Part shown: positions 4,040 through 34,511 of the stretch, one piece after another
Layout of the letters: every line of letters begins with the position of its first letter
How positions within the stretch are numbered: the stretch's first letter is position 1
From: Myxococcales bacterium
Lineage (GTDB): Bacteria; Myxococcota_A; UBA9042; JABWCM01; BTVJ01
Direction: 5' to 3'
NCBI GenBank assembly: GCA_045863395.1
Contig: BTVJ01000078.1
Location: forward strand, 1-34,558
Length of the DNA stretch: 34,558 nt
Program-made: the position numbers and the translations under genes
The notes under the pieces: generated by a model
The model's database searches: none
Seen by the model: only the letters and a program-made list of their open reading frames with translations
What the model was told of the DNA's origin: nothing

Positions 4040-4064
4040 CTTCAAACCTCCGCGCTAGTTTCCT

Positions 4065-8565: not shown

Positions 8566-8825
8566 GGTCGCTGCTCCTGGTTTGTACCACCCACTGCTTG
8601 GGTCTACCGGCGAACCACTGACGCTCAATTCCCTTCAAGGCGCTACGTTCCAGCCACTTGGCCATGTGCGTCTCCCCTACGGGGCACACCGCTCCCGACG
8701 GGCAACTTGTCCCCGGGGCGCTCCCCGCACGATCTCCCCTGAGCAGAACGTCCACGGAGAAGCTTCTGACGAAGGGGACTCCCCGAAGCCGGCCCCGCGA
8801 GAGAAGCACGACGGCTCCGGGTCTG

Positions 8826-9734
8826 TCAACCCAACTTCGCTCGCCCCGCCATCTCGACCCCCACCCGCCCGAGCCCGAATGACGTCTGCTTGCCCAGGTG
8901 GACCTGCTCCGCCGCTCGCAGCCACGGCGCGAAGGGCCCCACCGCTCCCTCGAACGTGGCCGTGCCGCCGAGGCCCTGCATGGGGTGGCGCTCATCGCGT
9001 GTGGTCGCCCGCCGTTCCCATCCGTGCGTAGCAAAGTCCGTGGCCACGAGCCGGACCTCCGCGGCGATCCGGCGCAGCTCCTGGAATCTGGCCTCGTCCT
9101 CCTCCCCGATCTGGCCGTAGAGCGCCGCCAGGGTCGCCAGACGGCGGTGAATCAGGGAGAACAGCCCGACGAACGTGGGGCACGTGACCGGCTCCTTGCG
9201 GACCTCCCACGCAAGCGGCGTGCGGCACCGCACGACGACAGTCCCGTCTCCCTCCGCCCCTCTCCCCAGGTCGAGGGCCCGCTCCCGGGCGCCCAGCCTT
9301 CGGACGCCCTGCAGCTCCACGCGCCCCTCGTCCGAGCCCAGGGGGAAGCGCTCGATGCCCTCCAGCATGGCGAGGAGGCGGCTCGCGTCCTCGTCGAGTG
9401 ACCCGAACACCTGCAAGCCCAGGAAGAGGCTGTGGCCCACTCCCAATTGCCGCTGTCCCGGCGTCGGGATGACGGGCACCCAGCGAGCCGGCGGCGTGCG
9501 CTGACCCACGAGCAAGGGGTGCGGCGCCGCCTCCAGGGCGGGCTCGAAGAGGCGCTGATACGCACACGCGCCAGGCTCTCCGCAGTCTCGCTCGCACCGG
9601 GGCGTCCGTGCGCAGGCCAGGGCGTGGAGACTCCTGCCGAGCACTCCGCGGAAGAGGCTGCCGGAGTGCTCCGGCAGAGCGAAGGGGCGCGTCACCCGGT
9701 AGGTGGCGCGCAGCGACGTGACCTTGAGCTCCAT
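8826..9734 (-). CDS. cas6: Cas6 crRNA-processing endoribonuclease (copy 1, Cys-cluster type)
   Basis: GSLFRGVLG, C..C..C..CAY cluster and C-terminal HLGKQTSFGLG G-loop. ATG at 9734 follows GAGGAG. Confidence 0.92.
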   Translation of the reverse strand: MELKVTSLRATYRVTRPFALPEHSGSLFRGVLGRSLHALACARTPRCERDCGEPGACAYQRLFEPALEAAPHPLLVGQRTPPARWVPVIPTPGQRQLGVGHSLFLGLQVFGSLDEDASRLLAMLEGIERFPLGSDEGRVELQGVRRLGARERALDLGRGAEGDGTVVVRCRTPLAWEVRKEPVTCPTFVGLFSLIHRRLATLAALYGQIGEEDEARFQELRRIAAEVRLVATDFATHGWERRATTRDERHPMQGLGGTATFEGAVGPFAPWLRAAEQVHLGKQTSFGLGRVGVEMAGRAKLG

Positions 9735-9765
9735 GTACCGCTCCTCACCGCTTCGTCCCCGTACT

Positions 9766-15091: not shown

Positions 15092-15169
15092 CGGGCTGGC
15101 GAGATTTGTCGCGCGCGCCGAAACGTGGCACAACTGCGAGGAGCCTTGGGACCTTGGCCAGGAGGGGTC

Positions 15170-16972
15170 ATGGACATCGAGAGCATCCGCGCGCTCGCCC
15201 GCGCGGGGAGTCACGACGAAGCCGCCGGCGCGCTGGCGACGGCGCTGGCGGCCCCTGAGCCCCGCGACCACGTGGAGTGGGGCCGCCTGGCGGCCGAGCT
15301 GGGCGACGTCCATGGCGCAATCCGAGAGCTTCAGCTCGCGGTGCGGGACGCGCCGGCCAACCCGGACATCCTCGGAGAGCTGGCGGAGCTGTATCGCGAT
15401 CTCGGGGACGTGCGCCGGGAGGCCGCCCTGAGAGAGCGCCTCGCTGCGCTGGAAGGACGCGAGTGCGCCGCCGACGAGCGCCTGATCCTGCTCCGGGGTC
15501 TCTCCCCGGACGAGCCGCGCGCCAAGCCCCCCGTAGCCCCTCTCGCCGAGGAATCCGATGCGGACCGGGTGCGCTTCGTGCACCTGTTCGGCGGCCGCGA
15601 GGACGTCTACGCCCGCATGTGGTCGGACCCTCGAAAGGGCGTCGGCTACAGCCCCATCGAGCGCCCGCTGACCCCGGACGTGGTCCGGGCCCACCTGGCG
15701 GGAAGCGCCACGGTCGGCTCGTACGTGGTGCGCCTCGACGGGACGGTCACCTTCTTGGTGGTGGACCTGGACATCACGCGCCGCGCAGTCGAGCGGGCGC
15801 GCGGCGACCGGGACGAGACGCGCCGCCTCCGCAGGCTCGTCCACACCGAGGGGCTGCGCCTTCGGAGCGCACTCGAGGAGCGGGGCCTGCCGGCCTTCCT
15901 CGAGGACTCCGGGTACAAGGGTCGCCACCTGTGGTGTTTTCTGCGGGAGCCTCTGCCCGCCGACCTGGCCCACCGGCTCGGGGTCGCACTGACCCGTGCC
16001 CTGGCGCCCCAATCTCGGGATCTCGCGCTGGAGGCGTTCCCCAAGCAAGGGACGGTCAAGGCTGGCGGCCTTGGAAACCTCGTGAAGCTCCCTTTGGGCA
16101 TCCACCTGCGGTCCGGTCGGCGTGCCATGCTCCTCGACGAGGCTGGGGGTGTGGTCCACGACCCGTGGCCTCTCTTGCGCGAGGCGCCACGGCTGGAACG
16201 GGACACTGTGTTGAAGGCAATGGAGACGCTCCGGGCCGCACCGGTCTCCGTGGCCGCCGTGGGGGCCCGAGATGAGGAGGACACCGAGCCGCTCCCCCCG
16301 GTTCAGCGCCCCCTGACCCCGGCCCCCTTCACGGAGGCCGACTTCACGGCGCGCGCCGAGGTGGCGGTCATGCTCCGCGGGTGCCCGGTGCTGGCGTCGC
16401 TGGTCGACCGGGGGCTGACCCACCGCCGCCTGACCCACGACGAGCGGGTCGTGCTGCGGCACTCTCTGGGGCACACCCCGGCGGGCCTCCTCGCCGTGAA
16501 CTACCTCTTCGAGCGCTGCCCGGAGGTGCCGCCGCAGGACTTCCTGAAGACCCGCCTGTCCGGGAACCCCATCTCCTGCGCCGCGGTGCGCCGGCGCGTG
16601 CCCCACGTCTCCTCCCAGGTCGCGTGCCACTGCGAGTTCGCCAGCGCGGGCGACCAGTATCCGTCACCGCTCCTGCACCTGGAGGAGGCACGGGCGCTGG
16701 GGACGCTTGCTCCCCGAACGGTCGCGCCGGAGACTGCGCCCGAGGCCCCTGACGCGCCGGACGCTCAGGAGCTCGCCCGCGCCTACGCCCTGCTCATGGA
16801 GCGGCAGCGCGCCGTCGAAGCGGAGCTCCAGGCGACCCGCGCGGCGCTGCTGGAGCGTGCGACGGCGAAGCCCGACCGCCGGCTGCCCGTGGCGGGTGGC
16901 GCGTGGACCGTGAAGGACGACGAGGGTATGCCCGTGCTCTGCTGGGAGCCAGACCAGGCGCCGGGGGCCTGA
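15170..16972 (+). CDS. CRISPR-associated primase-polymerase (CAPP): TPR - AEP - PriCT-like Cys domain - coiled coil
   Basis: N-terminal TPR-like helices. FGGREDVYARMW, AEP motif I VVDLD (15764-15772), motif II SGYKGRHLW, LEAFPKQ and GNLVKLPLG. Four Cys in GCPVL, ISCAA and CHC. AGGAGG RBS; immediately upstream of cas1. Confidence 0.88.
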   Translation: MDIESIRALARAGSHDEAAGALATALAAPEPRDHVEWGRLAAELGDVHGAIRELQLAVRDAPANPDILGELAELYRDLGDVRREAALRERLAALEGRECAADERLILLRGLSPDEPRAKPPVAPLAEESDADRVRFVHLFGGREDVYARMWSDPRKGVGYSPIERPLTPDVVRAHLAGSATVGSYVVRLDGTVTFLVVDLDITRRAVERARGDRDETRRLRRLVHTEGLRLRSALEERGLPAFLEDSGYKGRHLWCFLREPLPADLAHRLGVALTRALAPQSRDLALEAFPKQGTVKAGGLGNLVKLPLGIHLRSGRRAMLLDEAGGVVHDPWPLLREAPRLERDTVLKAMETLRAAPVSVAAVGARDEEDTEPLPPVQRPLTPAPFTEADFTARAEVAVMLRGCPVLASLVDRGLTHRRLTHDERVVLRHSLGHTPAGLLAVNYLFERCPEVPPQDFLKTRLSGNPISCAAVRRRVPHVSSQVACHCEFASAGDQYPSPLLHLEEARALGTLAPRTVAPETAPEAPDAPDAQELARAYALLMERQRAVEAELQATRAALLERATAKPDRRLPVAGGAWTVKDDEGMPVLCWEPDQAPGA

Positions 16973-16974
16973 CC

Positions 16975-18024
16975 GTGGCCCTGTTGGCGCTGACGGACCC
17001 AGGGGCTCGGCTGACCGTGCGCGCCGGCGCGCTGCTGGTCGAGAAGGCGGGCGCGGTCCTCCACGAGGTGCGCCCCGACGACGTGGACGAGGTGCACGTC
17101 TACGGCGGCGCCGACCTGACCCCCGCGGCGCGCAACCTCCTGCTGCGCCAGGGCACCGACACCCTGTTCTTCACGGCGGACGGCCGGTGGCTCGGGCGCC
17201 TGCTGTCCACGGATAGCCGGAACCCGGTTCGGAAGCTGGCCCAGCTCCGCGTGCTCACCGACCCGACCCTCGCCCTCGCCTTCGCGCGCAGCGTCGTGGC
17301 CGGCAAGCTCATGAATCAGCGACACGTCCTGCTGCGCGTCGCCCGGGACCGGCCGAGCGACACCCTGGCCGGGGCCGTCGCGTCGCTGCGCCAGCTCGCT
17401 CGCCAGGCGCCGGACGCTCAGTCCATGGAAGCCCTTCGAGGGGTCGAGGGCTACGGCGCCGTGGTCTACTTCAAGGGGTTCGCGGAGGCGATCACCCACC
17501 CGGTCTTGCGGTTTGCCGGGCGCAACCGCCGCCCTCCCCGAGACCCGGTCAACGCCTGTCTCTCCTTCGGATACACCCTGCTGCTCGCGCGGGCGGACTC
17601 TGCCCTGCGGCGGGCCGGGCTCGACCCGTCCATCGGCGCCCTTCATGTGCCAGAGCCCGGGAAGCCGGCGCTGGGGCTCGACCTCATCGAGGAGCTGCGA
17701 CCCCTCGTGGTGGACCGCCTGGTCCTGCGCCTGATCAACCGCTCCCAGCTCGCGCCGGACGACTTCGAGGAGCCGGGCATTGCTAGCGAGACCATCGCGA
17801 CCCCGGAGGACCCGCAGGATCCCCCCGTGCGCGCCGTCTGGCTCGGACCGGTCGGGCGCGCGGTGTTCCTGCGAGAGATCGGTCAGCTCTGGCGCACCCC
17901 CTGGGTCGGGCTCGACGGCAAGCGCTGGGCGGCGTCGGCGATCCTGGACCAGCAGGCCCAGGCCATCGCCCGCTTTGTCGAGTCTCCCGACGTGGGATAC
18001 TCTCCCTACCACCCGCCCGCGTGA
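16975..18024 (+). CDS. cas1: Cas1 integrase
   Basis: LRGVEG, RNRRPPRDPVNACLSFGY, GLDPSIGALH and LGLDLIEELRPLVVD. GTG lies 2 bp after the CAPP stop. Confidence 0.96.
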   Translation: MALLALTDPGARLTVRAGALLVEKAGAVLHEVRPDDVDEVHVYGGADLTPAARNLLLRQGTDTLFFTADGRWLGRLLSTDSRNPVRKLAQLRVLTDPTLALAFARSVVAGKLMNQRHVLLRVARDRPSDTLAGAVASLRQLARQAPDAQSMEALRGVEGYGAVVYFKGFAEAITHPVLRFAGRNRRPPRDPVNACLSFGYTLLLARADSALRRAGLDPSIGALHVPEPGKPALGLDLIEELRPLVVDRLVLRLINRSQLAPDDFEEPGIASETIATPEDPQDPPVRAVWLGPVGRAVFLREIGQLWRTPWVGLDGKRWAASAILDQQAQAIARFVESPDVGYSPYHPPA

Positions 18025-18308
18025 CCGCCATGCACCTCGTGGTCTGCTACGACATCATCGACGACCGCCGCCGGACGCGGCTGTTCAAGAGACTCAAGGG
18101 CTTCCTTGTGCCTGTCCAGAAGAGCGTGTTCGAGGGGGTGCTCCCCGACCGGCGCTATCCGGCACTTGTGCGCACCATCCGGTCCAACGTCGACGAGGCC
18201 ATCGACACGGTGCGCATCTACCACCTCTGCAAGGGCTGCGGCGGCCTCACCGAGCTCATCGGCGTGAGCGTCCCGGTCGCGGACGGACCCCAGGACATCG
18301 TGGTGTAG
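18021..18308 (+). CDS. cas2: Cas2
   Basis: VVCYDIIDDRRR, VQKSVFEG, DTVRIYHLC. Start is GTG 18021 or ATG 18030. Confidence 0.96.
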   Translation: MTAMHLVVCYDIIDDRRRTRLFKRLKGFLVPVQKSVFEGVLPDRRYPALVRTIRSNVDEAIDTVRIYHLCKGCGGLTELIGVSVPVADGPQDIVV

Positions 18309-18310
18309 CC

Positions 18311-21274
18311 ATGGCGCAGACCGGATACGTCCCATCCTTCGAGCGGGCCACGTCCGAGACTGCCCTCGCGCGCGCGTGGGCGCACGTCCGGGCAAAGCGG
18401 TCCGCGGCGGGCGTCGACCGGGTGACGGTGGATCAGTTCGCCGAGGGCGTACAGGCCCGACTCGGCGAGCTGTCCGCGGCGCTGCGCAGCGACTCCTGGC
18501 AGCCGCTGCCGGGGCTGCGGCTCGCGTGTCCCGCTCGCCCTGGGCGCGAGCTGGTGATCCCCGCCGTAGCTGACCGGGTGGTCCAGCGCGCGATTGCGGG
18601 AGAGCTGACCCCCTTCTACGACCCGCGCCTGAGCCAGAGCGCCTGGGCGTATCGGCCCGGCCGCTCCGTGGGGCAGGCAGTCGCCAAGGTGGAGCGCATG
18701 GTCCGCGGGGGCATGGGGTGGTACGCCCGGACCGACATCGAGAAGTTCTTTGACCGGATTGATCGGCCTCGGCTGCTGGCGACGCTAGCCGACGAGCTGG
18801 AGCCCCGCATCGTGGAGCTGGTGGGACGACTGCTCACCGCGGGCGCCCTGGAGGGGGCCGTGGTCTTCGATCCCGGCCTGGGAGTCCCCCAAGGGAGCGC
18901 CCTGTCTCCGCTGCTCTCCAACGTGTATCTACGGCCTGTAGATGCGGCCATGGAGGCTGCGGGCTTCGCCACCATCCGGTACGCCGACGACATCCTGATG
19001 CTCGGGGCCACGGAGACCGAGTCTGCCGACGCCCTCGCCTGTCTCGGCGACGCGGTGGAGCGGCTTGACCTGAGACTGTCTGCCCGCAAGACCGCCCGGG
19101 GACACGCCGGCGGCGGCTTCGTCTATCTCGGGGTGCGCTTCGACGCGGGCGGGCGGGCTCCGACCGCGGAGGCGCTGGACGCCCTCGACCGTCGCTGCGC
19201 GGAGAGCGGAGACACCGCGGTTGGGACGCTCGTGCGGGAGTGGGAGCGGTGGTACGGACCGGTCCCCGTGCGCCGCGTGCGATCTCTCGCGTTGCTGGCG
19301 GCCCTGGTGGAGCAAGCGGTCCCAGAGTCTCCACTGGCCTCCGCTCTCGCACGCAGGCGCATGGAGCTCGGCGACGTGCGCGCACACGCAGGAGTCCACG
19401 AGCGCCTCGCCGGGCTGTGGTCCTGCGCTCCTGCCCACCAGGAGTTCCTGTGCGCACTCCTCCTCGATGCGGCGGCCGTGGCGCGGAGCGGCGACTCCGA
19501 ACGCGTGGCGCGGGCGGCGCGGTTCGCCGGGGTGCCCTTGTCGGTCATGCCCGCGCTCGCGAAGGGGATGGACCGCGCACGGGGCGCCCTCGGGGCCTGC
19601 GGGCGGGTGTCTCTGGCCCAGGCAGCGCGGGCGCTCCTCGAGCGAGGGCGGTGGGCTCCGCTGTCCGGGGAAGGCGCACCCGAGGAGGTCGCGGCGGCGG
19701 TGCAGGCGCGAGAGCTGGACGTGTGGGTGCGCCGCCTCGACGGGCGCGAAGGGGTGCACGCCGAGGAGGAGGTCGACGGACGGGGACACCGGCAGCTCAA
19801 CCTGGTGAGGGGACCGCTCACCGCCGACCACCTGCGACGGCACCTGGCCGGAAGGGCGCGAGTCGGGGTCTACCCGGTGCGCTCGGACCAGACGGTGAGG
19901 TTCGCGGTGTTCAGCGTCACCGTGAAGCGGGAGGCGATGCTCCCTCCCTGGGCGGCCGCCGCGGGTGCAGTCCGCCCAGACGACGCGCGGGACCGCTGGC
20001 AGGCGCTTGTCGGGCGGGCCCACGACCACGCCGTGACGGTGGGGCGCGCCATGCACCGGCTGGGGCTCGACCCGCTGCTGGAGGACACGGGCACGACCGG
20101 GCGCCGCGTCTGGGTCCTGTTCGCGGACCCGGTGGAGCTCCGGCACGTACACGCGCTGCTCGGGAGAGTCGAGGAGGCGGTGGGGGAGACGCCACCCGAA
20201 CTGCACCGGGAGCGCGTTCCCGCGCTGGACCGCGTCCTGAACGCGCCCGGGCCTGCCGTGCTGCTCCCCCTGGGGATTGACCCCCGGAGCCGTCGCCGGA
20301 GCGCCTTCGTCGACGTGGGCGGAGCGCCCTTCGAGGACCTGCTGAGCCCGCTCCTCGAGCTGACTGGGGCAGCGCCCTCGGCCATTCGCGGGCTGGTCGT
20401 GCGGGGAGGGCAGCGGACGGAGGACGGCCCGCGCAGCTCAGCAGCCCTGAGGCTCGTGACGCCCTATCCGCGGGCCTTGCGAGTGCTGGCAGGGTGTGCC
20501 GTGCTGCGCGCCCTCGGGGACAAGTTCGCGACCCTGGACCACCTGGAGCGGGAGGAGCGAGCGTCTCTCATCGAGGCGCTGTCGGTCCTGCCGGACCCCG
20601 ATGGATCAGGGGCGCTGGGGGCGCTGCTCCGGGCCACGGAGGGGACGGCGGCGGCGGATCTGCGCTACCGACTGCGTCGTCGGCCGGACCATCCGGTGAG
20701 CTGCGCCAGGCTGCGCCAGCGGCACCCGAAGGCGGCCGCGGCGGGGTGTACGTGTACCTTTCATGGGCTGCACGGAGGAGCGTACCCGACGCCGGCGCTA
20801 CACACGCTGCGGCCGGGGGAGATCCCGGCCTTCCGGGCGCGCATGGAGGAGCGGCGGGCGCGGCGGGGTGGAGCGGGCGGCGCGGGCGGAGCGAGAGGCG
20901 TGATGCCCATCGGCCCGGCGCCTCGGTTGGAGCGGTCGGACGACGGGCGCGGCGGGGTGGCGAGCGGCCCCGTCGAGACGCAGGCGCCCACGAAGCCGCT
21001 CCATGTGGCGACGGAGGCAGGCACCGGCGCCGAGGACGACGGCGCCCGTCCCCTCGACCAGGCCGAGCTGGTCCGCCGCGTCGAGCTGTGGCTGACCAAG
21101 CTCCAGAATCTGCGGACAGCCGCGGAGAACACGGCGCGGGGAATCGCGCGCGCCGAGGAGAGCCTCGCGAGGCTGCTGTCGTCGGCGGGTCTTGACCGAG
21201 TCAAGGTATCACAGGGCTCACTGGTGCTCGTCCCGGGCAGTCCACCTCGCTTCAAGCTGGAGAGAGACCTCTAG
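18311..21274 (+). CDS. CRISPR-associated reverse transcriptase fused to a degenerate CAPP (AEP + PriCT-like) module
   Basis: RT motifs AAGVD, IPAVADRVVQ, AYRPGRS, DIEKFFDRI, PQGSALSPLLSNVYL and RYADD (YADD at 18980-18991). The C-terminal half aligns by eye with the upstream CAPP. The ATG is 2 bp after the cas2 stop; 987 aa. Confidence 0.9.
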   Translation: MAQTGYVPSFERATSETALARAWAHVRAKRSAAGVDRVTVDQFAEGVQARLGELSAALRSDSWQPLPGLRLACPARPGRELVIPAVADRVVQRAIAGELTPFYDPRLSQSAWAYRPGRSVGQAVAKVERMVRGGMGWYARTDIEKFFDRIDRPRLLATLADELEPRIVELVGRLLTAGALEGAVVFDPGLGVPQGSALSPLLSNVYLRPVDAAMEAAGFATIRYADDILMLGATETESADALACLGDAVERLDLRLSARKTARGHAGGGFVYLGVRFDAGGRAPTAEALDALDRRCAESGDTAVGTLVREWERWYGPVPVRRVRSLALLAALVEQAVPESPLASALARRRMELGDVRAHAGVHERLAGLWSCAPAHQEFLCALLLDAAAVARSGDSERVARAARFAGVPLSVMPALAKGMDRARGALGACGRVSLAQAARALLERGRWAPLSGEGAPEEVAAAVQARELDVWVRRLDGREGVHAEEEVDGRGHRQLNLVRGPLTADHLRRHLAGRARVGVYPVRSDQTVRFAVFSVTVKREAMLPPWAAAAGAVRPDDARDRWQALVGRAHDHAVTVGRAMHRLGLDPLLEDTGTTGRRVWVLFADPVELRHVHALLGRVEEAVGETPPELHRERVPALDRVLNAPGPAVLLPLGIDPRSRRRSAFVDVGGAPFEDLLSPLLELTGAAPSAIRGLVVRGGQRTEDGPRSSAALRLVTPYPRALRVLAGCAVLRALGDKFATLDHLEREERASLIEALSVLPDPDGSGALGALLRATEGTAAADLRYRLRRRPDHPVSCARLRQRHPKAAAAGCTCTFHGLHGGAYPTPALHTLRPGEIPAFRARMEERRARRGGAGGAGGARGVMPIGPAPRLERSDDGRGGVASGPVETQAPTKPLHVATEAGTGAEDDGARPLDQAELVRRVELWLTKLQNLRTAAENTARGIARAEESLARLLSSAGLDRVKVSQGSLVLVPGSPPRFKLERDL

Positions 21275-21276
21275 GA

Positions 21277-23472
21277 TCACCACAGGTTGTGGCGGATTCC
21301 CCCAAGGACCGCGCGCCCGCGCTCGGGCCAGGTCGCGGCTTGATCGAGGCACCCGAAGTGGCCAGCCGATGACGGAGGGGCCGTCTCGTCCCAGGCGCTG
21401 GTGCCGGCGTGGGCGATGACGGCCGCCTGGAGCTCGCGGAAGGCCGAGGCGATCTGCGGGGTGCAGTCCCGGGCGTGGTCGCTCAGCGCGAGAGCTCCCC
21501 GGAGCGCGGCGGCGCGGCCGAGGACACGGAGGACTCCCTCGCCGCGGAGGTGCGTCGCTGCATCCGAGTAGGCCGCTGCGGCTCGCTCGGCGCCGGCGCG
21601 GTCCGTGGCGACCCGCTCCTCGAGGAGCCCGACCGCCTGCCGGATGAGGCCGAAGGGGTGCTGCGCCCTCTCGCCCTCGGGCCAGGCGTCGAGGGGAGAC
21701 TCCGCGTGCCACCGGGAGAGGACCTCGCGAACAGAGTCGAGTGGCGAGAACACCGCATGGCCCTTGAGCTGCAACGCCAGCACGAACTGCTGCCCTCTCT
21801 GGCGGATGGGAGACAGTGACGCGACGGCGAGGTGCTCGCAGACCTCTCGCCAGAGAGGGGCGCCGCTGGCGCCACGGTCGCACGCCAGGTGCCCGAGGTA
21901 GACCCACTGTCGCTCAATGTCTCTCGGGTCATCCATGTGATCGAGCGCGACTCGAAACGCCACCTCGGCAGTGTCCGTGTGTCCCGCCATGGCCTCCACC
22001 TGCCCCAGGGTCCCGTAGCAGGCCCCGACCGAGCGGGACCGAGGAGTCTGGCCGATCACACTCGCGAGGCGCCCGATGGACGACTCCTGCAGGTGGATGA
22101 CCTCCTCGAGAGTCCTGCGCGCCTCGTCGAGATTCAGCCGGTCGAGGAGGCTCACTGCGCGCCGGTTGCGCACGTCCGCGACGGTGTCGATTCCCGAAGC
22201 GCCCCGAGCGGCCAGCGCCGGCTCGTCCCGGAGATACTCCGCCCACAACGCCTCGGCCTGCGCCGAGTCTGCCATGTGGTTGGCGGCGGACAGACGCGCC
22301 CGCGTCCACTGCACCCGGATCCTCACGTCGGCCGCGTCGCCCAGGTCGAGGAGGCGGTAGCACCTCTCTGCGCGGATCAGGCCAGCCTCGAGCCCACCCG
22401 GCGCGTCGATCTCGTCGCACGCCGCGTCGAAGGCAGCCCTCAGCAGGGGAGACTCAGCGGCCAACAGGGGCGCGGCCTCGGCGTCCAGCGCCTGGATCAG
22501 AGCGGAGTAGCGCAGGCGCTCGGTCTTTGGGGCGGTGTCCAGGTCGCGCCTCCGGGCCAGGAAGCGGTCCAGAGAACGCTGCTCGATGGCCTCGCGCAGA
22601 TCCGCCAGCGCAGAGAGCCACGGCCCATAGGAGACTCGCGCGAGGATTGGGACCAGGGGCTCGGTCATGGTGGTCGCGCCCCTGGCAAGCCGCAGCTCAC
22701 GCTCGCGCTCTCGTCCGAGTGCCAGGTCTGCCAGGTAGAGGGCAGCAGGGCTTCGCCCGCCGGCGTAGTCGATGGGCTCGACGCTCACACCGGTCAGGTT
22801 CAAGCCGGTCCGGGCCCATCGGTCCTGGCCGGCGGCCCACACGAGCGCGCGGAGCTCCCGCTCGCTCACGATGCCGTGTATGGCGAGAGCCGAGTGGCCG
22901 CGGCGCCTCATCTCACGCACCTTGTAGCCCAGCGCCTCCAGCGCCTCCCGGTCCGCCGCAGTCCCCGCAAACACCCAGCTCCGCTCCGCGACGTGCAGGT
23001 GCAGCTCCCATGAGGGAGACGTGAACGCGCGAAGCAGAGTCGGGTCGGTGAAGACCAGGTGCTCCAGCAGCCCGAACAGCATGGCCACGTAGCGATTGTC
23101 CCGCTCCCTCTCCCTGACGAAGCGTGGGCCTTCGGTCACGCTGTCTTGCCTGTGCATGACGGTCACGCCACGGACGCGTCCATCGGGATCGACCTGCGAG
23201 ATCGCAGCCTGGAGGGCCGTGGCCAGCGCCTCCCGCTGCTCAGGCCCAAGCGCACAGTCGCCCCCATGAAGATCGCGGGGCATCTGGCCGCCGACGCTCT
23301 CCACGGCGGTCCGGAGCGCCTCCCGCAACCGTGCGTCGAGCCCGTCGTCGTAGGGGCCGAGTACGCACACCCCGCCGACGAGTCTCACGTCTCCGGCCTC
23401 GTTTCTGTCGATTCTGCCGCTCTCGTCGATGAAAATGTGTACATCGTTGAACGGTGCTCGCAGATTCTCCAT
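21277..23472 (-). CDS. Hypothetical protein: N-terminal RNase H-like (DUF3800-like) domain plus C-terminal TPR-like helical region
   Basis: HIFIDESG...LVGGVCV and LYLADL resemble DUF3800 motifs. A TPR-like segment reads GACYGTLGQVEAMAGHTDTAEVAFRVAL. GGAGG precedes the ATG at 23472; 731 aa. Confidence 0.7.
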   Translation of the reverse strand: MENLRAPFNDVHIFIDESGRIDRNEAGDVRLVGGVCVLGPYDDGLDARLREALRTAVESVGGQMPRDLHGGDCALGPEQREALATALQAAISQVDPDGRVRGVTVMHRQDSVTEGPRFVRERERDNRYVAMLFGLLEHLVFTDPTLLRAFTSPSWELHLHVAERSWVFAGTAADREALEALGYKVREMRRRGHSALAIHGIVSERELRALVWAAGQDRWARTGLNLTGVSVEPIDYAGGRSPAALYLADLALGRERERELRLARGATTMTEPLVPILARVSYGPWLSALADLREAIEQRSLDRFLARRRDLDTAPKTERLRYSALIQALDAEAAPLLAAESPLLRAAFDAACDEIDAPGGLEAGLIRAERCYRLLDLGDAADVRIRVQWTRARLSAANHMADSAQAEALWAEYLRDEPALAARGASGIDTVADVRNRRAVSLLDRLNLDEARRTLEEVIHLQESSIGRLASVIGQTPRSRSVGACYGTLGQVEAMAGHTDTAEVAFRVALDHMDDPRDIERQWVYLGHLACDRGASGAPLWREVCEHLAVASLSPIRQRGQQFVLALQLKGHAVFSPLDSVREVLSRWHAESPLDAWPEGERAQHPFGLIRQAVGLLEERVATDRAGAERAAAAYSDAATHLRGEGVLRVLGRAAALRGALALSDHARDCTPQIASAFRELQAAVIAHAGTSAWDETAPPSSAGHFGCLDQAATWPERGRAVLGGIRHNLW

Positions 23473-23605
23473 GTCGTACCCTCCCGTGAGTTGGACTGTG
23501 AGCTCGCCCGTTGTCGTCTGCGCCGCGGAACCATACCACAGTCGAATTCCTTTGACACCGGGGGGACAGGTAGGCGACCTTCGCGGGTCTACGGCGAGGG
23601 AGATG

Positions 23606-24337
23606 ATGGACACGTTCATTTGCACGGTTGGCACGTCGGCGCTCACCAACACGCCGCCCCCCGGGTCCCGCCGGGCGGCGCTCGGTCTCAGCTTCGAGGC
23701 TCGGTCTACGCTGGGTAAGCCGGGGACTTTCGGGAATCAGCAGCCCTTCCGCGAGGCTGCCGTTACCGACTACGTGGAGGTGCTCGGCCGGGCGGCGGTG
23801 GCTGCCAATCGGGGTGACGAGGCCGTGGTGCGGGACCTTCTCAGGCAGGTGTCCGCCGAGCTGAGCTCCCTCGCCCTGCTGCGCTTCATGAGGGTCAGGC
23901 GCGGCCTCGGACGCGTCGTGCTCGTCTCGTCAGACACGGGACCAGGGAGCATCGCCGCGACCATCGTGGGTGAGGCGATTGAGAAGTGCTGGCCGGTGGA
24001 GGAGCTGCACACCGAGCTGTGCGCAGGGCTCGATCCCGAGGATCAGGGCCGGTTTCTGGGCACTGGTCTCCAGAACCTCCAGGAGCTTGTAAAACGCAAC
24101 GTCGAGACGTGGCGGGACGGAACCGTCCATCTGAACATCACGGGCGGCCTGAAAGGGGGGATTCCGTTCTTGACTGCCATCGGCATGAAGCACGGCTTGC
24201 CCATCGTGTATCTCTTCGACCAAGGGCTGGGAGTGAGCTGGATCGACGGCCGGGTCCTGGCCTTGCAGGTCCAGGGCGGCGGAGACTGGGGCTCCGCGGC
24301 AAAGAGCACCTCATTTGCGGACATGCCCCTGGGATGA
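23606..24337 (+). CDS. Stand-alone CARF-domain protein, APE2256/Crn1-like (putative ring nuclease)
   Basis: FICTVGTSALTN, SAELSSL, SSDTGPG, FLGTGLQNL, LNITGGLKG and IVYLFD are hallmark motifs of this family. No fused nuclease domain. Confidence 0.82.
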   Translation: MDTFICTVGTSALTNTPPPGSRRAALGLSFEARSTLGKPGTFGNQQPFREAAVTDYVEVLGRAAVAANRGDEAVVRDLLRQVSAELSSLALLRFMRVRRGLGRVVLVSSDTGPGSIAATIVGEAIEKCWPVEELHTELCAGLDPEDQGRFLGTGLQNLQELVKRNVETWRDGTVHLNITGGLKGGIPFLTAIGMKHGLPIVYLFDQGLGVSWIDGRVLALQVQGGGDWGSAAKSTSFADMPLG

Positions 24338-25566
24338 GCACAGTCGGCGAGGTGACCACAGCGACGCCGGGCGAGTTCTGGCACCGGCTACGCAGCGATG
24401 ACGCGGGGAGGAGGATCAGGCCCCCCGCTGGGCATCAGCCGACCACGTGGCTGCTGGACCTTCCGCAGGACGATCCGATCGACACCCTCCGCCAGATCCC
24501 GATGCGAGCGTGGCTGCCGCAGGACCTGCGAATCCTCTTCGACGGACTGGCGGGCCCCATGCAGTCCCGCGTCGCTGACATGGAGCGGGCGCGGGTGCGG
24601 CTGTGGCTGCTCGACCAGCCGGGCCTGACGGAGATCGGGCTCTCGGCGACACCAGGGGCACTGCGCGACGTCCGACGCTGGCTCTATGATGCCACGGAGT
24701 CGCCCGCATCGACCGAGGCGCGTGTCCATCGGATGCTCTCGCCCTACGACGTGGAGGAAGAGATCGCCCGCGTCGGACGCATCGCCGACCGCGAGGCCGG
24801 GCGCGTCGGCGGCATCCGCCGGGACCGCATCATCACCCGTCCGCTCGCGGAGGCGGCCCGCGCCAGTCTCCGGAGGCGCTATGCCTTTGGCGTCTGGAGC
24901 CCCGGCGACCCGGGCCCGTCGGGCTTGACCCGCTTTGCGACTCACCCGGGCACGTGGTCTGTGCCTGCGCTGCTGCTTGCGGTGCTGAGCTGCTCGGGGC
25001 ACCTGCCGTGGTGGGCGCCTACGGCTTGGATGACGGTGGCGCTCGTCGTTGCGTGGGGGCTTGCCCGCTCCCGGATTCCGCTGGTGGCGATGCCTCGCCT
25101 GGCGGCCGCCATCGGCGTCGGCATGCTCATCATCGCGCTGACCGACGAGGTGTGGCGGCTGTCCATGGGGCCGTGGTCCTCGCGTTCCCTGTGGCTCTCG
25201 AGCGCCCTCATCGCCATCACCTTCGGATACATGGTCATGGAGGTCGCAAATCGCGGCGTTCGGCTGTTCGCCGCGCTGAGCCGCGCCCTCTGGCTGACCG
25301 TGGCTGGTGCCGCCCACGCGGCGGCGATTGCGACCCTCGGGCTGGCGGCGCTGGGGGAGGGGTTTCGCGGAACCGTGGAGGCGCTCTGGCTCGGCCTGCC
25401 CGGCAGTGGTGGCCCCGTGCTCGGTCTCTCCGTTCCCGTTGTCGATGGCCATCCTCCGCTGGTCCTGCCGGCTGCCGGAGTACTGCTCCTTGGCTCGATG
25501 GCGCTGTTCGTCGGGGTCTTCGTCCAGCTCCTCTGGGAGGAGCAGGCCCTGACAGAACGGGTGTGA
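24334..25566 (+). CDS. Hypothetical multi-pass membrane protein with an N-terminal soluble domain of about 200 aa
   Basis: The ATG overlaps the CARF gene stop (ATGA). About six hydrophobic segments in the C-terminal half; ends FVGVFVQLLWEEQALTERV; 410 aa. Confidence 0.75.
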   Translation: MSTVGEVTTATPGEFWHRLRSDDAGRRIRPPAGHQPTTWLLDLPQDDPIDTLRQIPMRAWLPQDLRILFDGLAGPMQSRVADMERARVRLWLLDQPGLTEIGLSATPGALRDVRRWLYDATESPASTEARVHRMLSPYDVEEEIARVGRIADREAGRVGGIRRDRIITRPLAEAARASLRRRYAFGVWSPGDPGPSGLTRFATHPGTWSVPALLLAVLSCSGHLPWWAPTAWMTVALVVAWGLARSRIPLVAMPRLAAAIGVGMLIIALTDEVWRLSMGPWSSRSLWLSSALIAITFGYMVMEVANRGVRLFAALSRALWLTVAGAAHAAAIATLGLAALGEGFRGTVEALWLGLPGSGGPVLGLSVPVVDGHPPLVLPAAGVLLLGSMALFVGVFVQLLWEEQALTERV

Positions 25567-26699: not shown

Positions 26700-26918
26700 C
26701 CTCCGCCCGCGAACCTCCCCACGCACGCGTAAGTCCGCGAATCCTCGTGGAGGTTCGCGGAAAAGGACGGCTCCATGAAAACTAATGATTTCCGAACGTT
26801 GCGCTGCAACGGGTACGCCAGACCCCAGGCCAGGGGGGAGGGTCAATGTTTTGCCCCCCCGAGGTTCGCGGATCGGCCACCGCAGGGCCAGCAACGGCGC
26901 CGTGTGCTGAGCTGAGGG
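26700..26918 (+). promoter_or_regulatory. CRISPR leader
   Basis: Lies directly 5' of the first repeat. Contains a 12-bp inverted repeat CCGCGAACCTCC/GGAGGTTCGCGG (26707-26718, 26749-26760), a further GAGGTTCGCGG at 26861-26871, and an AT-rich IHF-like patch at about 26778-26791. The degenerate repeat is at the far end of the array. Confidence 0.75.
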
Positions 26919-29900
26919 GTGCCGACCCCTTCCCCGACTACGAGGGGATTGAGACTTTCCTCCCGCCTCGTAGGCCAATTCCCTACCAGAAGGCAGTGCC
27001 GACCCCTTCCCCGACTACGAGGGGATTGAGACACGGCCTACACGCACCCCCCAGACTTGACGGACGACCTTCTGTGCCGACCCCTTCCCCGACTACGAGG
27101 GGATTGAGACTTTCGACGGTTATGATCCTGGTCGAGATGGTGCAGAATGGCGTGCCGACCCCTTCCCCGACTACGAGGGGATTGAGACTGCAACGCCTTG
27201 TCGAGCCCGTCGAGCCTGCCGCGGTTGGTGCCGACCCCTTCCCCGACTACGAGGGGATTGAGACCGGTCGCGGGCTTGACGTTGATCGACAGGTGGACCC
27301 GTCGGTGCCGACCCCTTCCCCGACTACGAGGGGATTGAGACTTCTCTGCCGCTTCCCGGAAGCTGTCAATTGCATTGTCCGTGCCGACCCCTTCCCCGAC
27401 TACGAGGGGATTGAGACGAGGATGAGGGCCAGGACGGCCAGGGTGAGGTGCAGTCGGGTGCCGACCCCTTCCCCGACTACGAGGGGATTGAGACGGGCGG
27501 GGTCGTGTCGGGCTGGGACGTGTCGGCGCTGGGTGCCGACCCCTTCCCCGACTACGAGGGGATTGAGACGTGCGTGCAGTACCCGTCCCCGTCCGCGTCC
27601 ACGCAGGGCGTGCCGACCCCTTCCCCGACTACGAGGGGATTGAGACTGTCCGATACTATTCGCGTCGGACCCACGCGCCGGAGTTGTGTGCCGACCCCTT
27701 CCCCGACTACGAGGGGATTGAGACCTTCAGGCTCGTGTACCGAAGGTCCGCGCCCGTCAGGTTGTGCCGACCCCTTCCCCGACTACGAGGGGATTGAGAC
27801 GTCCGCGTCCTTCAGGCTCGTGTACCGAAGGTCCGCGCCCGTGCCGACCCCTTCCCCGACTACGAGGGGATTGAGACGGCCAAGTATGCCGCTTTGGTCG
27901 CTGCCCGGAAATCGTCGTGCCGACCCCTTCCCCGACTACGAGGGGATTGAGACAATGAAGACGGCCGGCCCACCTTGACTCCCCAGACTTGAGTGCCGAC
28001 CCCTTCCCCGACTACGAGGGGATTGAGACCCCTGGAGGTCCGCGCCCGACAGGTTTGCACCCGTCAGGGTGCCGACCCCTTCCCCGACTACGAGGGGATT
28101 GAGACCTCAGAGTGCCCAACTCAATAAGCGCGCCGCCGAGCGTTGGAGTGCCGACCCCTTCCCCGACTACGAGGGGATTGAGACTGGTGACCGTCGTCGT
28201 CGCCGGGGTGGTGACCGCCGTCGTGTGCCGACCCCTTCCCCGACTACGAGGGGATTGAGACTGTGACCACGAGGTCACTCATGTTCGCTCGTAGCCACGG
28301 CGTGCCGACCCCTTCCCCGACTACGAGGGGATTGAGACCTCGCCACAGCTTTGCAAACCCCGCTCGCCGGAACCGTTCCCGTGCCGACCCCTTCCCCGAC
28401 TACGAGGGGATTGAGACTTCCACCGCTGCCCGGAAGCTGTCAATTGCATTGTCCTGAATGTGCCGACCCCTTCCCCGACTACGAGGGGATTGAGACACTC
28501 GCCAGCCGCCGCGGCCGCACGAATCTCGTTGCCCAGTGCCGACCCCTTCCCCGACTACGAGGGGATTGAGACGAACGAAAACCGACACTCCCGGCGCGAC
28601 GGTACCGTCCTGTGCCGACCCCTTCCCCGACTACGAGGGGATTGAGACACTATACCGCCCGCGACCCCCCCAAAAATCACAAACGGGATCGGTGCCGACC
28701 CCTTCCCCGACTACGAGGGGATTGAGACTGCCCGTGGCAAATAAAGGTGTCGGAGGTTCGCGCCCTGGGTGCCGACCCCTTCCCCGACTACGAGGGGATT
28801 GAGACAACAAGGTCATCCATGTTCGCGCGCAACCAAGGCCAGAAGGTGCCGACCCCTTCCCCGACTACGAGGGGATTGAGACTGTCCGTCGGGTCCTGTC
28901 ACAACCCAATTGTGGTTTGGTGCCGACCCCTTCCCCGACTACGAGGGGATTGAGACGATGATTTTCTCAACATCTTCCCTTGCGATACCGGCCGAGTGTG
29001 CCGACCCCTTCCCCGACTACGAGGGGATTGAGACCAGTAGCATATGCCGCTTCGGCCGCTGCCCGGAAGTTGTCAGTGCCGACCCCTTCCCCGACTACGA
29101 GGGGATTGAGACTGTGGAACCTCACCCAAGGCCAGAAATTGGCCTCGGTGAAGTGCCGACCCCTTCCCCGACTACGAGGGGATTGAGACTAGCATATCCT
29201 CCCGTGTCCACGTCAACAGACCCTGAGGGGTGCCGACCCCTTCCCCGACTACGAGGGGATTGAGACTACCGACCTTGACTCCCCAAACAGAGCGAATGAC
29301 CTTTTCGAGTGCCGACCCCTTCCCCGACTACGAGGGGATTGAGACAGGTCCACACGCGCCATGGACCACTGGGGCAGAAGGGCTTGTGCCGACCCCTTCC
29401 CCGACTACGAGGGGATTGAGACTCCTATCGTTGTCACACAAGGAATGCAGCCTAGCAACCGGTGCCGACCCCTTCCCCGACTACGAGGGGATTGAGACTA
29501 CATGGCCCTTTGATAGCCTCCAGCTGGTCCACCTTGGACGTGCCGACCCCTTCCCCGACTACGAGGGGATTGAGACCCCAGCCGATAAAGGGCCTACATG
29601 GCCCTTTGATAGCCTGTGCCGACCCCTTCCCCGACTACGAGGGGATTGAGACCGCGACCACGGCGCTCCCGGCGCCGAATGCGGCGCCGGCAGGTGCCGA
29701 CCCCTTCCCCGACTACGAGGGGATTGAGACGCAGCATGGCGCCGCTCCCCTCGTACACGGGGGTGGCGTCCCCGTGCCGACCCCTTCCCCGACTACGAGG
29801 GGATTGAGACTTCTCCTCGAAGCGGGCGTCCTCGATGACAAGGTCGTTGAAGTGCCGACCCCTTCCCCGACTACGAGGGGATTGAGACTTGTTCGACTGC

Positions 29901-32900
29901 CCAGCCGATAAAGGGCCTACATGGCCCTGTGCCGACCCCTTCCCCGACTACGAGGGGATTGAGACTTGCACCTTGCATCTGCGCGCCTGCAAGGATTGCA
30001 GTGCCGACCCCTTCCCCGACTACGAGGGGATTGAGACTCACCGATCGTGAGGTTGATCGGCATCTCCACGTCCTGGTGCCGACCCCTTCCCCGACTACGA
30101 GGGGATTGAGACCAGCGCCCGACCGTCTCCGGCTCCCAGCCAAAGTTGTTGAGTGCCGACCCCTTCCCCGACTACGAGGGGATTGAGACTTCAGCGGCGC
30201 GAAGCCTACCTGTACTTCCCCGAAAACCAGTGTGCCGACCCCTTCCCCGACTACGAGGGGATTGAGACGTCCTTCACGCAGAGGCAGTCCTCGTCCACCT
30301 CTTCGTTGGTGCCGACCCCTTCCCCGACTACGAGGGGATTGAGACGTCCTCCTCGTACCGCCGGCGCCGGGGGGCGTGGCGATGTGCCGACCCCTTCCCC
30401 GACTACGAGGGGATTGAGACTACCCGCGTCCTTCGCGGTCTTTGCCGCTGCCTCGAAATCTGTGCCGACCCCTTCCCCGACTACGAGGGGATTGAGACCG
30501 TTGCCGCAGAGTCCGGGGGTCGTACCGCCGTCGCCGTGTGCCGACCCCTTCCCCGACTACGAGGGGATTGAGACACTTCGAGAACCTGCCTCTTCATCTG
30601 TTGCCTCCGTTGTGTGCCGACCCCTTCCCCGACTACGAGGGGATTGAGACCTTCGCCTTCTTGGCCTCCGCCTTCGCGGCGGCCTCGGCGGCGGGTGCCG
30701 ACCCCTTCCCCGACTACGAGGGGATTGAGACTGACAGCGTCGTCCTCGTCCAGGGTCTCGGCCAGTCGGATCGTGCCGACCCCTTCCCCGACTACGAGGG
30801 GATTGAGACGATCTGGTGCTTGCGCTCCTCCCCGACCGACATACGGCCCAGTGCCGACCCCTTCCCCGACTACGAGGGGATTGAGACTTGCTCGTGTCCG
30901 ACGGGCAGCGCCGGCACTCAGCGAAGTGCCGACCCCTTCCCCGACTACGAGGGGATTGAGACAGCCGGCCTCTGGTCGCGCGACCGGCATGTGCCCGGCG
31001 TGCCGACCCCTTCCCCGACTACGAGGGGATTGAGACGGTGGCCTCTTCGCCGGGCTGGAAAAACGCCCGCAGAGCCCCGTGCCGACCCCTTCCCCGACTA
31101 CGAGGGGATTGAGACTGCCGTCTTGGTGAACCCGGGCGGCGCGGGCTTGAGAGAGGGTGCCGACCCCTTCCCCGACTACGAGGGGATTGAGACTGGCGGC
31201 CGGGGGCGGGCAGGCCTTGGGCAGGGCGGCGATGTGCCGACCCCTTCCCCGACTACGAGGGGATTGAGACTTCCCTGCGGTGTCCATGGTGCGCGGGCCG
31301 GCGTTCCTCCGTGCCGACCCCTTCCCCGACTACGAGGGGATTGAGACGTTGACAAATAATAGGTCCCAACGAGAAGTTACTGCATTGAGTGCCGACCCCT
31401 TCCCCGACTACGAGGGGATTGAGACAACTGCGGCATGAGGGTCGCGGCGACGACGATGGCCAGGCCGTGCCGACCCCTTCCCCGACTACGAGGGGATTGA
31501 GACGAAGGCTCCGAGGGAACGGGCAGGGCTCATCAGGCAGGGGTGCCGACCCCTTCCCCGACTACGAGGGGATTGAGACTTTTGACCAACCCCCGCACAG
31601 CTGGGTCGACCTTTGGTGCCGACCCCTTCCCCGACTACGAGGGGATTGAGACCGGGGTGGCACCGACCGCCGGCGGGACCGCCGGGATCATACGGTGCCG
31701 ACCCCTTCCCCGACTACGAGGGGATTGAGACTAAGTTTCATGGTTTTTCCTCTTTGTCCGCACTCCGTTTTGGTGCCGACCCCTTCCCCGACTACGAGGG
31801 GATTGAGACACGGGAGGGCGGAAGGCACCGCGCGGATTGTTGCAGGAGCGGGTGCCGACCCCTTCCCCGACTACGAGGGGATTGAGACAGGCCGCCTCCG
31901 CCGCCGCCCACCGGGCGGCCTTGATCTCGGTGCCGACCCCTTCCCCGACTACGAGGGGATTGAGACTGTTCGCCCGTCATCGCGTCGCATTTATCCCCGG
32001 CCCAAGTGCCGACCCCTTCCCCGACTACGAGGGGATTGAGACCGTGATGGCCGTCCGTCTGGCCACAGCCCCGCGATCCGCAACGGTGCCGACCCCTTCC
32101 CCGACTACGAGGGGATTGAGACCGTTGCCGCTGGCATGGCCCCCACGGGCAGAGCCAGGAACTGTGCCGACCCCTTCCCCGACTACGAGGGGATTGAGAC
32201 TTCGCCTCGGCCGCCTCGCGCGCGAGCTTGTCGGCCTGGGCCTGGTGCCGACCCCTTCCCCGACTACGAGGGGATTGAGACTCGGCCGCGGGGGCCTTGG
32301 ACGCCCGGCGCTCGGCGCGCTTGTGCCGACCCCTTCCCCGACTACGAGGGGATTGAGACATCAGCGGGAGGCGGTGGCACCGAAGCACCGCCACCACGTG
32401 CCGACCCCTTCCCCGACTACGAGGGGATTGAGACTGGCCGAACGTCTCCGTGAGCATCTTATTGTAGTACCCGAGTGCCGACCCCTTCCCCGACTACGAG
32501 GGGATTGAGACTGCGACGCCTGCTCCAGCGGGAGCCCTCGGTAGGTGACCAGTGCCGACCCCTTCCCCGACTACGAGGGGATTGAGACATACGGCTGTTG
32601 TCGGGTACGCACCAGCCGTCGTGGTCGGTGCCGACCCCTTCCCCGACTACGAGGGGATTGAGACTTGGCAACGGGCGCCTTGACCTCGATCGGGGCAGGG
32701 GGTGCCGACCCCTTCCCCGACTACGAGGGGATTGAGACTTATGGGAACCGCGCCACCCACCGGACCACTACTGCAGGGCGGTGCCGACCCCTTCCCCGAC
32801 TACGAGGGGATTGAGACCTTGCCGTCGCATGCCTCCTTGGTGAGCGCGGCCTCCGTGGGTGCCGACCCCTTCCCCGACTACGAGGGGATTGAGACTAGAT

Positions 32901-34511
32901 GTAGACGCGGACGCCCCAGGGAACACCGTTGACGTAGTGCCGACCCCTTCCCCGACTACGAGGGGATTGAGACGCCCGGCGATTCTCCGGCCATGCGACC
33001 GAGCCGTTGTAGCCAAGTGCCGACCCCTTCCCCGACTACGAGGGGATTGAGACGACTCTGGCCCCTTCCAGGGGCCGACCTCATCGTGGCGGCGTGCCGA
33101 CCCCTTCCCCGACTACGAGGGGATTGAGACGCCAGGAACTCTTTGACCAGCGCCAGCACAGCGCGGTCGAGTGCCGACCCCTTCCCCGACTACGAGGGGA
33201 TTGAGACGTTGACACACTCCGTCCTGCCTCGGGCCGTCGCCAGCAAGTGCCGACCCCTTCCCCGACTACGAGGGGATTGAGACGGGGAACCCGCCCCCCC
33301 TGAGCCAGTCCCGAAGGGCCGTCGTGCCGACCCCTTCCCCGACTACGAGGGGATTGAGACGTGCAGGCCTCCTGCGTGACCGCCGCGGCCTTGGCCTCCT
33401 GTGCCGACCCCTTCCCCGACTACGAGGGGATTGAGACCTGCCCGTTGACGCAGGACTCGAGGCCGTCGCACAGATCCGTGCCGACCCCTTCCCCGACTAC
33501 GAGGGGATTGAGACTCGACGAGTTGTAGGGGGTGAGCGAGCTGAGTCGGGAAGTGCCGACCCCTTCCCCGACTACGAGGGGATTGAGACAGGGGAGCGAG
33601 CCGCGTGTGGGCTCGGGTTGTTGCTTTCCGGTGCCGACCCCTTCCCCGACTACGAGGGGATTGAGACTCGAGGATGTTGCCGATCGCGTTGCGCGCCCAG
33701 CCGATGGAGTGCCGACCCCTTCCCCGACTACGAGGGGATTGAGACAACACGGACGCGAGGGCCTGCGTCAGCGAGAAGGGCTTGTGCCGACCCCTTCCCC
33801 GACTACGAGGGGATTGAGACTACGCCGCCCTCTCGTCGTCGCGCTGCTTGGCCCGGCACAGTGCCGACCCCTTCCCCGACTACGAGGGGATTGAGACGAA
33901 CGCCTCGCGGCGTACCGCCTCGACCAGAAGCGCATGGTGCCGACCCCTTCCCCGACTACGAGGGGATTGAGACATGCCCAGCCATGGCCTCAGGATGAAC
34001 TGGTGAGTCGAGTCGTGCCGACCCCTTCCCCGACTACGAGGGGATTGAGACCCGGACTCGATGACGCCGAGGTCACCACCGCCGGTTCCCCCGTGTGCCG
34101 ACCCCTTCCCCGACTACGAGGGGATTGAGACTGAGCTTCTTGGGCGGGATCTGGACGGTGGCGACCGGCAGCGTGCCGACCCCTTCCCCGACTACGAGGG
34201 GATTGAGACTCGATGATAGACTCTTCGTCCATCTTCCCAGACTCGTGTGCCGACCCCTTCCCCGACTACGAGGGGATTGAGACCAGTGCAGCGGGGAGAG
34301 GGCCACGTTGAAGTGCCAGGAGTGCCGACCCCTTCCCCGACTACGAGGGGATTGAGACCGCTCGTGAGGAGCGGGAGGAGGGAGGTAACCAACTGAGTGC
34401 CGACCCCTTCCCCGACTACGAGGGGATTGAGACCGGCGCTGGGGCCGGCGTCGTCCTCGGGCCAGTCGGCGTCCGTGCCGACCCCTTCCCCGACTACGAG
34501 GGGATTGACAG
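26919..34511 (+). CRISPR. CRISPR array, 37-bp repeat GTGCCGACCCCTTCCCCGACTACGAGGGGATTGAGAC, 99 repeats / 98 spacers of about 35-44 bp (manual count)
   Basis: Repeats appear invariant, with a period of about 77 bp. Hairpin TCCCC/GGGGA; 3' 8-mer ATTGAGAC is the crRNA 5' tag. The last copy (34475) ends in ATTGACAG, marking the trailer end and the + orientation. Confidence 0.99.

Follow-up and report, generated by a model that had tools for sequence, protein, structure and literature searches.

Introduction

The natural targets of reverse transcriptase (RT)-linked type III CRISPR arrays are mostly unknown. In Roseiflexus sp. RS-1's RT-Cas1 type III-B array, spacers were described against the genPartiti.0019 RNA viruses and viroid-like cccRNAs (bioRxiv 10.1101/2022.02.15.480533; 10.1101/2022.07.19.500677). 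The second of these accounts also has a 606-nt cccRNA from sludge with 57 spacer matches. RTs of the CART-CAPP type were reported to prime and copy RNA in vitro (PMC10415136), and in RT-free Thermus a strand bias among spacers was found to arise by selection alone (PMC7515739). Obelisks are circular RNAs of about 0.7-1.4 kb that are absent from DNA and pair with themselves into a rod along the whole genome, the ORF included. They have sludge among their habitats, and type III spacer matches to them have been reported (bioRxiv 10.1101/2024.01.20.576352; PMC13096302). Their Oblin-1 ORF is described as self-paired (bioRxiv 10.1101/2024.01.20.576352), and several Oblin clades are without the GYxDxG motif. 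The portion of a 2025 review drawn on here gives natural type III defence against RNA as unreported (PMC12014289). Our literature search found no paper that pairs Obelisks with Myxococcota and no paper on overlapping type III hotspot spacers.

In this study, we analysed an entire contig (C78, BTVJ01000078.1; 34,558 nt, hereafter the window) from a host genome of 8.77 Mb with 70.9% GC and 97% completeness. We describe a spacer array next to an RT, in which eight spacers fall on one short protein-coding segment.

Results

Host genome and CRISPR-Cas locus

Among the matches listed, the host RpoB showed at most 71% identity to named relatives, mostly Myxococcales and other deltaproteobacteria, indicating that the host belongs to a deep Myxococcota-like lineage. 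The leader of the array was found with 0-1 changes in 4/4 runs examined (sludge and bioreactor samples from 3 studies), and accordingly the host was present in these samples.

The features of the window are collected in Table 1. All of cmr1-cmr6 are present, and Cas10 has the palm GGDD; the Cmr3 match lies under the NCBIfam cut-off and over the Pfam cut-off. The window encodes two Cas6 proteins, and the RT adjoining the array looks intact. As read from its sequence, the locus falls within the CART-CAPP type III-B systems already described. The stretch 15125-21274 forms one adaptation operon with two primase-polymerase genes, the stand-alone CAPP scoring above the family cut-off and the RT-fused copy below it. 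The CARF gene overlaps the gene of the six-TM protein (Mem_01), and together they likely form a two-part signalling effector. Between the RT and the CARF gene, on the minus strand at 21277-23652, there is a 791-aa ORF with no match in NCBIfam, Pfam or PADLOC, possibly a type III accessory protein of a new type.

The array consists of 98 exact repeat copies with 97 spacers between them (99 copies at ≤3 mismatches), and one further spacer precedes the degenerate last repeat. We infer its orientation from this degenerate right-hand repeat and from the 74/97 spacers that read as coding on the reverse strand. Over 26919-34396, 41/97 spacers begin with T on the crRNA strand, a possible end preference of acquisition. 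No further array with this repeat was found in 60 relatives or in the genomes, metagenomes and viral contigs searched, collections from which near-identical records may be missing, and the 150 listed of the 198 Rfam matches on 25500-34558 were all weak CRISPR-repeat matches. In run X4, an RNA-library contig carrying the joint 27269-28918 contains a repeat-flanked spacer that is absent from this array, indicating that the population holds more spacers. The host genome holds three more arrays, on contigs C64, C99 and C126; C64 has its own Cas1 and RT, and C126 has Cas1 with no RT match.

Table 1. Features of the analysed contig; tile positions count from the first nucleotide of the 131-nt tile
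Feature	Position	Strand	Remark
Type III-B module: cmr6, cmr5, cmr4, cmr1, cmr3, cas10/cmr2, cas6	1765..9800	-	
CRISPR-associated primase-polymerase (CAPP) 15125-16972, cas1 16903-18024, cas2 18021-18308	15125..18308	+	
Reverse transcriptase fused to primase-polymerase-like domain	18308..21274	+	CART-CAPP type, YADD present
CARF protein and six-TM membrane protein (PADLOC Mem_01)	23429..25566	+	putative signalling role
CRISPR array, 37-nt repeat	26919..34511	+	leader on left; crRNA read on +
Spacer 2	27033..27073	+	tile nt 79-119; 16/39 nt unlike spacer 31
Spacer 6	27342..27380	+	tile nt 5-43; 33/37 nt same as spacer 20
Spacer 13	27878..27916	+	tile nt 18-56
Spacer 14	27954..27992	+	tile nt 92-130
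Spacer 20	28418..28459	+	tile nt 0-41
Spacer 27	28957..28997	+	tile nt 49-89; joins the two halves
Spacer 28	29035..29075	+	tile nt 17-57
Spacer 31	29267..29308	+	tile nt 76-117
Spacer 46	30421..30461	+	possible ninth, older, more distant member across the junction (weak)
Second variant cluster, spacers 18/25/29	28806..28845 (spacer 25), 28262-28301, 29113-29152	+	putative link to the tile, by pairing only
Third low-GC cluster, spacers 34, 35, 39	29499..29928	+	identical where overlapping

Eight spacers tile one coding segment in divergent variants

The initial annotation had claimed that eight spacers tile one protein segment of an invader in several divergent variants. Its coordinates are the exact bounds of spacers 2, 6, 13, 14, 20, 27, 28 and 31, counted from the leader, and its translations agree with our array analysis, as does the 26-nt identical run that it had noted between spacers 6 and 20. 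Together, the eight spacers tile 131 nt (43 codons) on one strand. When all 97 spacers were compared, same-strand overlaps at a score of ≥12 were present in 15/4656 pairs, five of them among the eight; overlaps on opposite strands were present in 0/4656 pairs, and each of 3 shuffles gave 0. Only 1/6 reading frames is without a stop in all eight spacers. The variable columns fall on codon position 3 in 19/33 cases and on positions 1-2 in 18/64 cases (Fisher p=0.005). Considering the third-position variation together with the one open frame, the spacers are pieces of a conserved protein-coding gene rather than escape mutants of one sequence. The overlap, open-frame and third-position statistics thus bear out the claim of a tiled protein segment.

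The overlapping spacers are variants and not copies. All 13/13 overlapping tile pairs differ, by up to 16/39 nt, and four tile spacers are mutually incompatible, so that at least four variants are represented. Young and old spacers can be near kin (6 and 20), which suggests that the lineages coexist and do not replace one another. The differences had been called synonymous or conservative; this description holds mainly through the conservative changes, since non-synonymous codon changes outnumber synonymous ones in the pairwise comparison (50 vs 27, with the ninth spacer counted in).

All eight spacers fall within the newest 31 of the 97. Their GC content is 0.56 vs 0.66 in the other 89 spacers (p=0.003), and the GC3 of the tile is 0.59 vs 0.82-0.89 in four host genes. 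The target strands are rich in G+U, at 0.54 vs 0.47 in the other low-GC spacers (p=0.002). Among the 108 spacers of the other three arrays there was no tile member, and C64, the second RT-linked array, showed 0/24 related spacers.

The same observations bear on the explanation that the spacers are self-derived, arose by mutated spacer duplication or from a diversity-generating retroelement, or reflect misassembly. RT systems can take up host transcripts, which would provide a route for self-derived spacers; nevertheless, BLAST and profile searches found no host homologue of the tile (best non-array E 0.17), the spacers start at different offsets, the changes follow codons and the repeats are exact. 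The changes are also not adenine-specific, as those of the variable region of a diversity-generating retroelement would be, with 16/37 variable columns lacking A and 21/37 lacking T. We consider this group of explanations very improbable and already largely refuted.

Junction between the two halves of the tile

The initial annotation had joined the two halves of its composite peptide by an inferred junction between AAY and AGI. The end of spacer 13 matches the start of spacer 27 at 7/8 nt and in frame. An equally good end overlap was observed in 41/38,612 ordered pairs of non-members (0.1% by chance), and 0/197 other spacers tested against spacers 13 and 28 gave one as good. At its other end, spacer 27 overlaps spacer 31 at 9/14 nt and spacer 2 at 8/11 nt. 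In the junction register, spacer 28 matches spacer 27 at only 4/9 nt. Spacer 46, matching spacer 13 at 22/37 nt and spacer 27 at 7/12 nt in the same register, was the best non-member among 999 frames scored, by a narrow margin (27 vs 24). The proposed junction is thus retained on the in-frame overlap and, weakly, on spacer 46, in a corrected form: the register leaves one residue between Tyr and Ala-Gly where the composite had two, so that the latter was one codon too long. Judging from these alignments, both halves likely belong to one ORF.

Further spacer clusters and the size of the target

The low-GC set on the leader side comprises 26 spacers, namely the tile, two further clusters and 12 singles. 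The members of the second cluster (18/25/29) are all different from each other, with 8-9 changes per pair. The 17 overlaps among the 26 spacers imply a target of about 1.1 kb, and the cluster members alone 0.3 kb, an estimate that holds if sampling was uniform and the low-GC singles came from one source. Under such sampling, the probability of finding 8 spacers within 131 nt falls from 0.68 for a target of 0.6 kb through 0.10 (1 kb) and 0.011 (1.5 kb) to 0.0002 (3 kb). The overlap density therefore indicates either a tiny target or a larger genome that has a very narrow hotspot. The initial annotation had proposed that a diverse family is hit repeatedly in a hotspot; a protein-coding segment from outside the host, the divergent variants and the adjacent RT agree with this, while a very small target explains the pile-up with no hotspot at all.

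A small target may also be DNA. A satellite, an inovirus-like or microvirus-like genome, or a small plasmid with one dominant transcript would fit the size estimate as well as a small RNA would. However, plasmid and phage records gave no match, and uniform sampling becomes unlikely at ≥3 kb. We regard a small DNA element as quite improbable.

Other spacers of the array overlap as well. Among the older GC-rich spacers, overlaps were found between 31580-31615 and 33131-33170 and among 31116-31156, 32818-32858 and 33361-33400 (24/30, 24/34, 21/29 nt), indicating that the stacking of variants is not confined to the low-GC target. Five spacers (27725-27763, 27801-27840, 28030-28068, 28729-28768, 29966-30000) encode pentapeptide repeats, and a spacer of C126 (14480-14516) resembles them; it seems from this likeness that two CRISPR types target the repeat gene of one DNA invader. 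Between the C64 and C99 arrays, the spacers 39630-39669 and 23906-23943, respectively, share a 26-nt identical overlap. Spacer 73 (32512-32551) is identical over 40/40 nt to 11235-11274 of host contig C136, and one C126 spacer matches at 36/38. With its recombinase-, integrase- and terminase-like ORFs, C136 resembles a fragment of a prophage. In run X1, a 4.3-kb contig begins with spacer 73 and continues beyond it. The identity of spacer 73 indicates that the array also takes up spacers from DNA elements or their transcripts.

As the pentapeptide cluster demonstrates, overlapping variants of this kind also come from a repeated gene. Accordingly, the eight spacers could each record a different copy within one DNA invader, a large phage or plasmid with tandem short paralogues or a repeated domain. 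Such copies would explain the absence of identical overlaps, and the effect itself is seen in this array. However, the 43-codon tile is without an internal repeat, and the second cluster is equally all-different, so that two multi-copy families, or one diverse small genome, would be needed. Among 1.84 billion representative proteins, no multi-copy relative was found. We consider a set of paralogues in one invader distinctly unlikely.

Searches for the target

The initial annotation had named searches of the tBLASTn type as a check for the target, and these found no source. A 38-residue frame gave no tblastn match against phages and plasmids, and blastn of 26919-30000 against phage records gave 9 weak chance pieces. 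In viral contigs, an exact 32-nt piece of the tile, the second cluster and the third cluster each gave 0 matches. Degenerate motifs retrieved 30 stretches in one viral search, all unrelated on translation, 0 in another viral search and 0 in metagenomes; further searches gave 4 matches in genomes and 4 in viral contigs, all unrelated. Only chance frames were found in 401 genomes of the phylum and 107 of the class, and none of the contigs of the 4 leader-bearing runs matched the eight spacers. Considering that contigs drop rare variants, this blank does not show absence from those samples.

At the protein level, word-indexed searches gave no match at E ≤10 among 948, 7 and 2329 candidates, and the 4 matches of HMMER over the 1.84 billion representatives were all unrelated repeat proteins. 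The PDB gave nothing under E 0.2, and the ESM Atlas no usable match. In Pfam and PHROGs, 0/13 short frames matched a family, and no RdRP or capsid homology to levi-, cysto- or partiti-like RNA phages was seen, in a search for which 13-residue pieces have little power. In local controls an exact target would score 40-80 bits, indicating that close relatives are within reach of the protein searches and distant ones are not. In a check for RdRP among the 97 spacers, GDD was present only in two GC-rich spacers outside the clusters. Because the collections are mostly DNA-derived and the queries short, the blank is compatible with an RNA element and is no proof of one.

Pairing between target strands

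The target strands of spacers 31 and 25 are predicted to pair in a duplex of 31 bp, interrupted by small bulges (24 Watson-Crick and 7 G-U pairs). It was the joint best of 20,910 pairs from the four arrays. For that pair alone, comparison with dinucleotide shuffles gave p=0.0015 and with synonymous re-coding p=0.0036; the family-wise value over 300 low-GC pairs was p=0.024, and the opposite polarity gave p=0.05. Variant 18 retains 25/28 of the pairs, and variant 2 retains 25/31. Covariation was neutral, with 9/28 variant changes preserving pairing. Strong pairs were not in excess (3 seen vs 2.6 expected; 19/1035 vs 12/1275 at z below -3), and fixed-diagonal averages over the variants did not single out the 31/25 register. 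We therefore treat the duplex as a lead and not as a result. If it is real, the second cluster lies upstream of the tile, on the opposite arm of one self-paired ORF.

The pairings 20/22, 13/39 and 1/39 were set aside, as their registers conflict, and the hairpin likeness of spacer 26 to a C64 spacer was not significant. The target of spacer 35 (29577-29615) contains a perfect 8-bp hairpin, with a self-fold z of -3.3. Spacers 10 and 11 of C64 and spacer 16 of C99 fold as strong hairpins and look non-coding.

Discussion

Alongside the tiling in one frame and on one strand, the number of variants, the adjacent RT, the low GC content and the lack of a host copy, we set the reading that we tentatively prefer, at somewhat less than an even chance: the source would be a family of small, low-GC, protein-coding invaders, probably RNA replicons, that was repeatedly sampled. 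The low-GC clusters would then share a common source. The invader may be a virus segment of short length, or else a viroid-like coding RNA no longer than about 1 kb. The RT would copy pieces of the abundant invader RNA, and Cas1/Cas2 would insert the copied pieces at the leader. The Cmr complex requires a crRNA that is antisense to RNA. Antisense spacers would be kept because Cmr needs an RNA target, and cleavage by Cmr, together with Cas10 signals that reach the CARF or membrane effector, would let the cells that carry them survive. With a tiny target, new spacers would fall on this conserved stretch of 131 nt again and again, and with a highly diverse family, nearly each acquisition would record another variant.

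The initial annotation had also considered the pile-up to fit RT-driven acquisition from RNA or strong selection for early-gene targeting. An intact-looking RT does adjoin the array. However, coding on the reverse strand reads best not only in 74/97 spacers here but also in 47/68 of the C126 array, on a contig with no RT, and the strand bias accordingly cannot separate acquisition from RNA from selection.

The main rival is a short early gene, or a set of paralogues, of a DNA phage, which we hold to be a substantial possibility, if a tentative one. In its single-gene form, related DNA phages share one short, very early or abundant transcript, and survivor selection or RT sampling piles the spacers there. 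Lytic phages are commonly below their host in GC, which counts for this form, and this array does target DNA elements. In RT-free Thermus, moreover, selection alone yields both a strand bias and a hot early region (PMC7515739). However, the terminal repeat that makes up that hot region measures 6.6 kb, contains ten genes and exceeds the width of the tile about fiftyfold, and the present case would require that each of at least four lineages, diverging by up to 40%, was hit in the same 131 nt within 30 acquisitions. In addition, IMG/VR, phage records and protein sets yielded no relative. We consider the shared phage transcript rather unlikely.

A more specific form of the RNA reading, which we regard as unlikely, is that the low-GC spacers on the leader side stem from an unsequenced family of circular, rod-shaped RNA replicons that encode protein and infect a deep-branching myxobacterium, either a new Obelisk clade or a parallel class. 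In that case, the tile and the second cluster would form opposite arms of the rod, as parts of one ORF.

With 43 codons tiled in at least four variants, this single array provides a precise probe, available at once, for an unsequenced element, and it ties this element to a host. Should the element be an RNA replicon, the hosts of such agents would extend to a further phylum, and type III defence against RNA would have a natural example. If it is a gene of a DNA phage, it would be an unusually narrow weak spot for type III immunity. If the rod-like RNA reading is true, the element's host, part of its genome and the immune response to it would all be read from one array. The approach of tiling and pairing is applicable to any RT-linked array.

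The following comparisons refer to the portions of the published accounts drawn on here. Type III spacers of Thermus against phiFa (PMC7515739) have strand bias and clustering in common with this array, but in that system there is no RT, one phage, a 6.6-kb hot region and no divergent variants. The RT-CRISPR repertoires of Arthrospira (PMC5513706) likewise consist of spacers in RT-linked arrays for which neither DNA nor RNA viromes gave a source; those spacers are hyperdiverse and mostly seen once, whereas here they are stacked on one coding segment.

The target resembles Obelisks in its implied size near 1 kb, and, as in these, its coding strand may pair with a second coding region (bioRxiv 10.1101/2024.01.20.576352; PMC13096302). 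By eye, the helix-loop-helix-strand of the tile, with Arg-Pro at its end, is reminiscent of the region that precedes domain A in Oblin clades O10 and C3 (PMC13096302). Unlike Obelisks, the target shows no circle, full rod, domain-A motif or statistical Oblin match in these data. The GYxDxG motif of Oblin domain A was present in no frame of the 97 spacers, which cover only part of the target, and the part of the gapped Oblin alignments that was compared contained none of six 4-residue words taken from the spacers.

The locus resembles the described CART-CAPP modules (PMC10415136) in its N-terminal RT with YADD, its C-terminal primase-polymerase-like domain, cas1/cas2 and the type III setting. 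It differs from them in the second, stand-alone CAPP upstream, and the module described here is known from sequence alone. Like the Roseiflexus array, it is an RT-linked III-B array in which many spacers are directed against variant-rich and, here, putatively small targets. It departs from Roseiflexus in its host, which is of a deep Myxococcota-like lineage, in the fusion of the RT to a primase and in a target known from the spacers alone. In Roseiflexus, the targets were sequenced and the spacers were pooled from many metagenomes, whereas here eight variants are held in one array.
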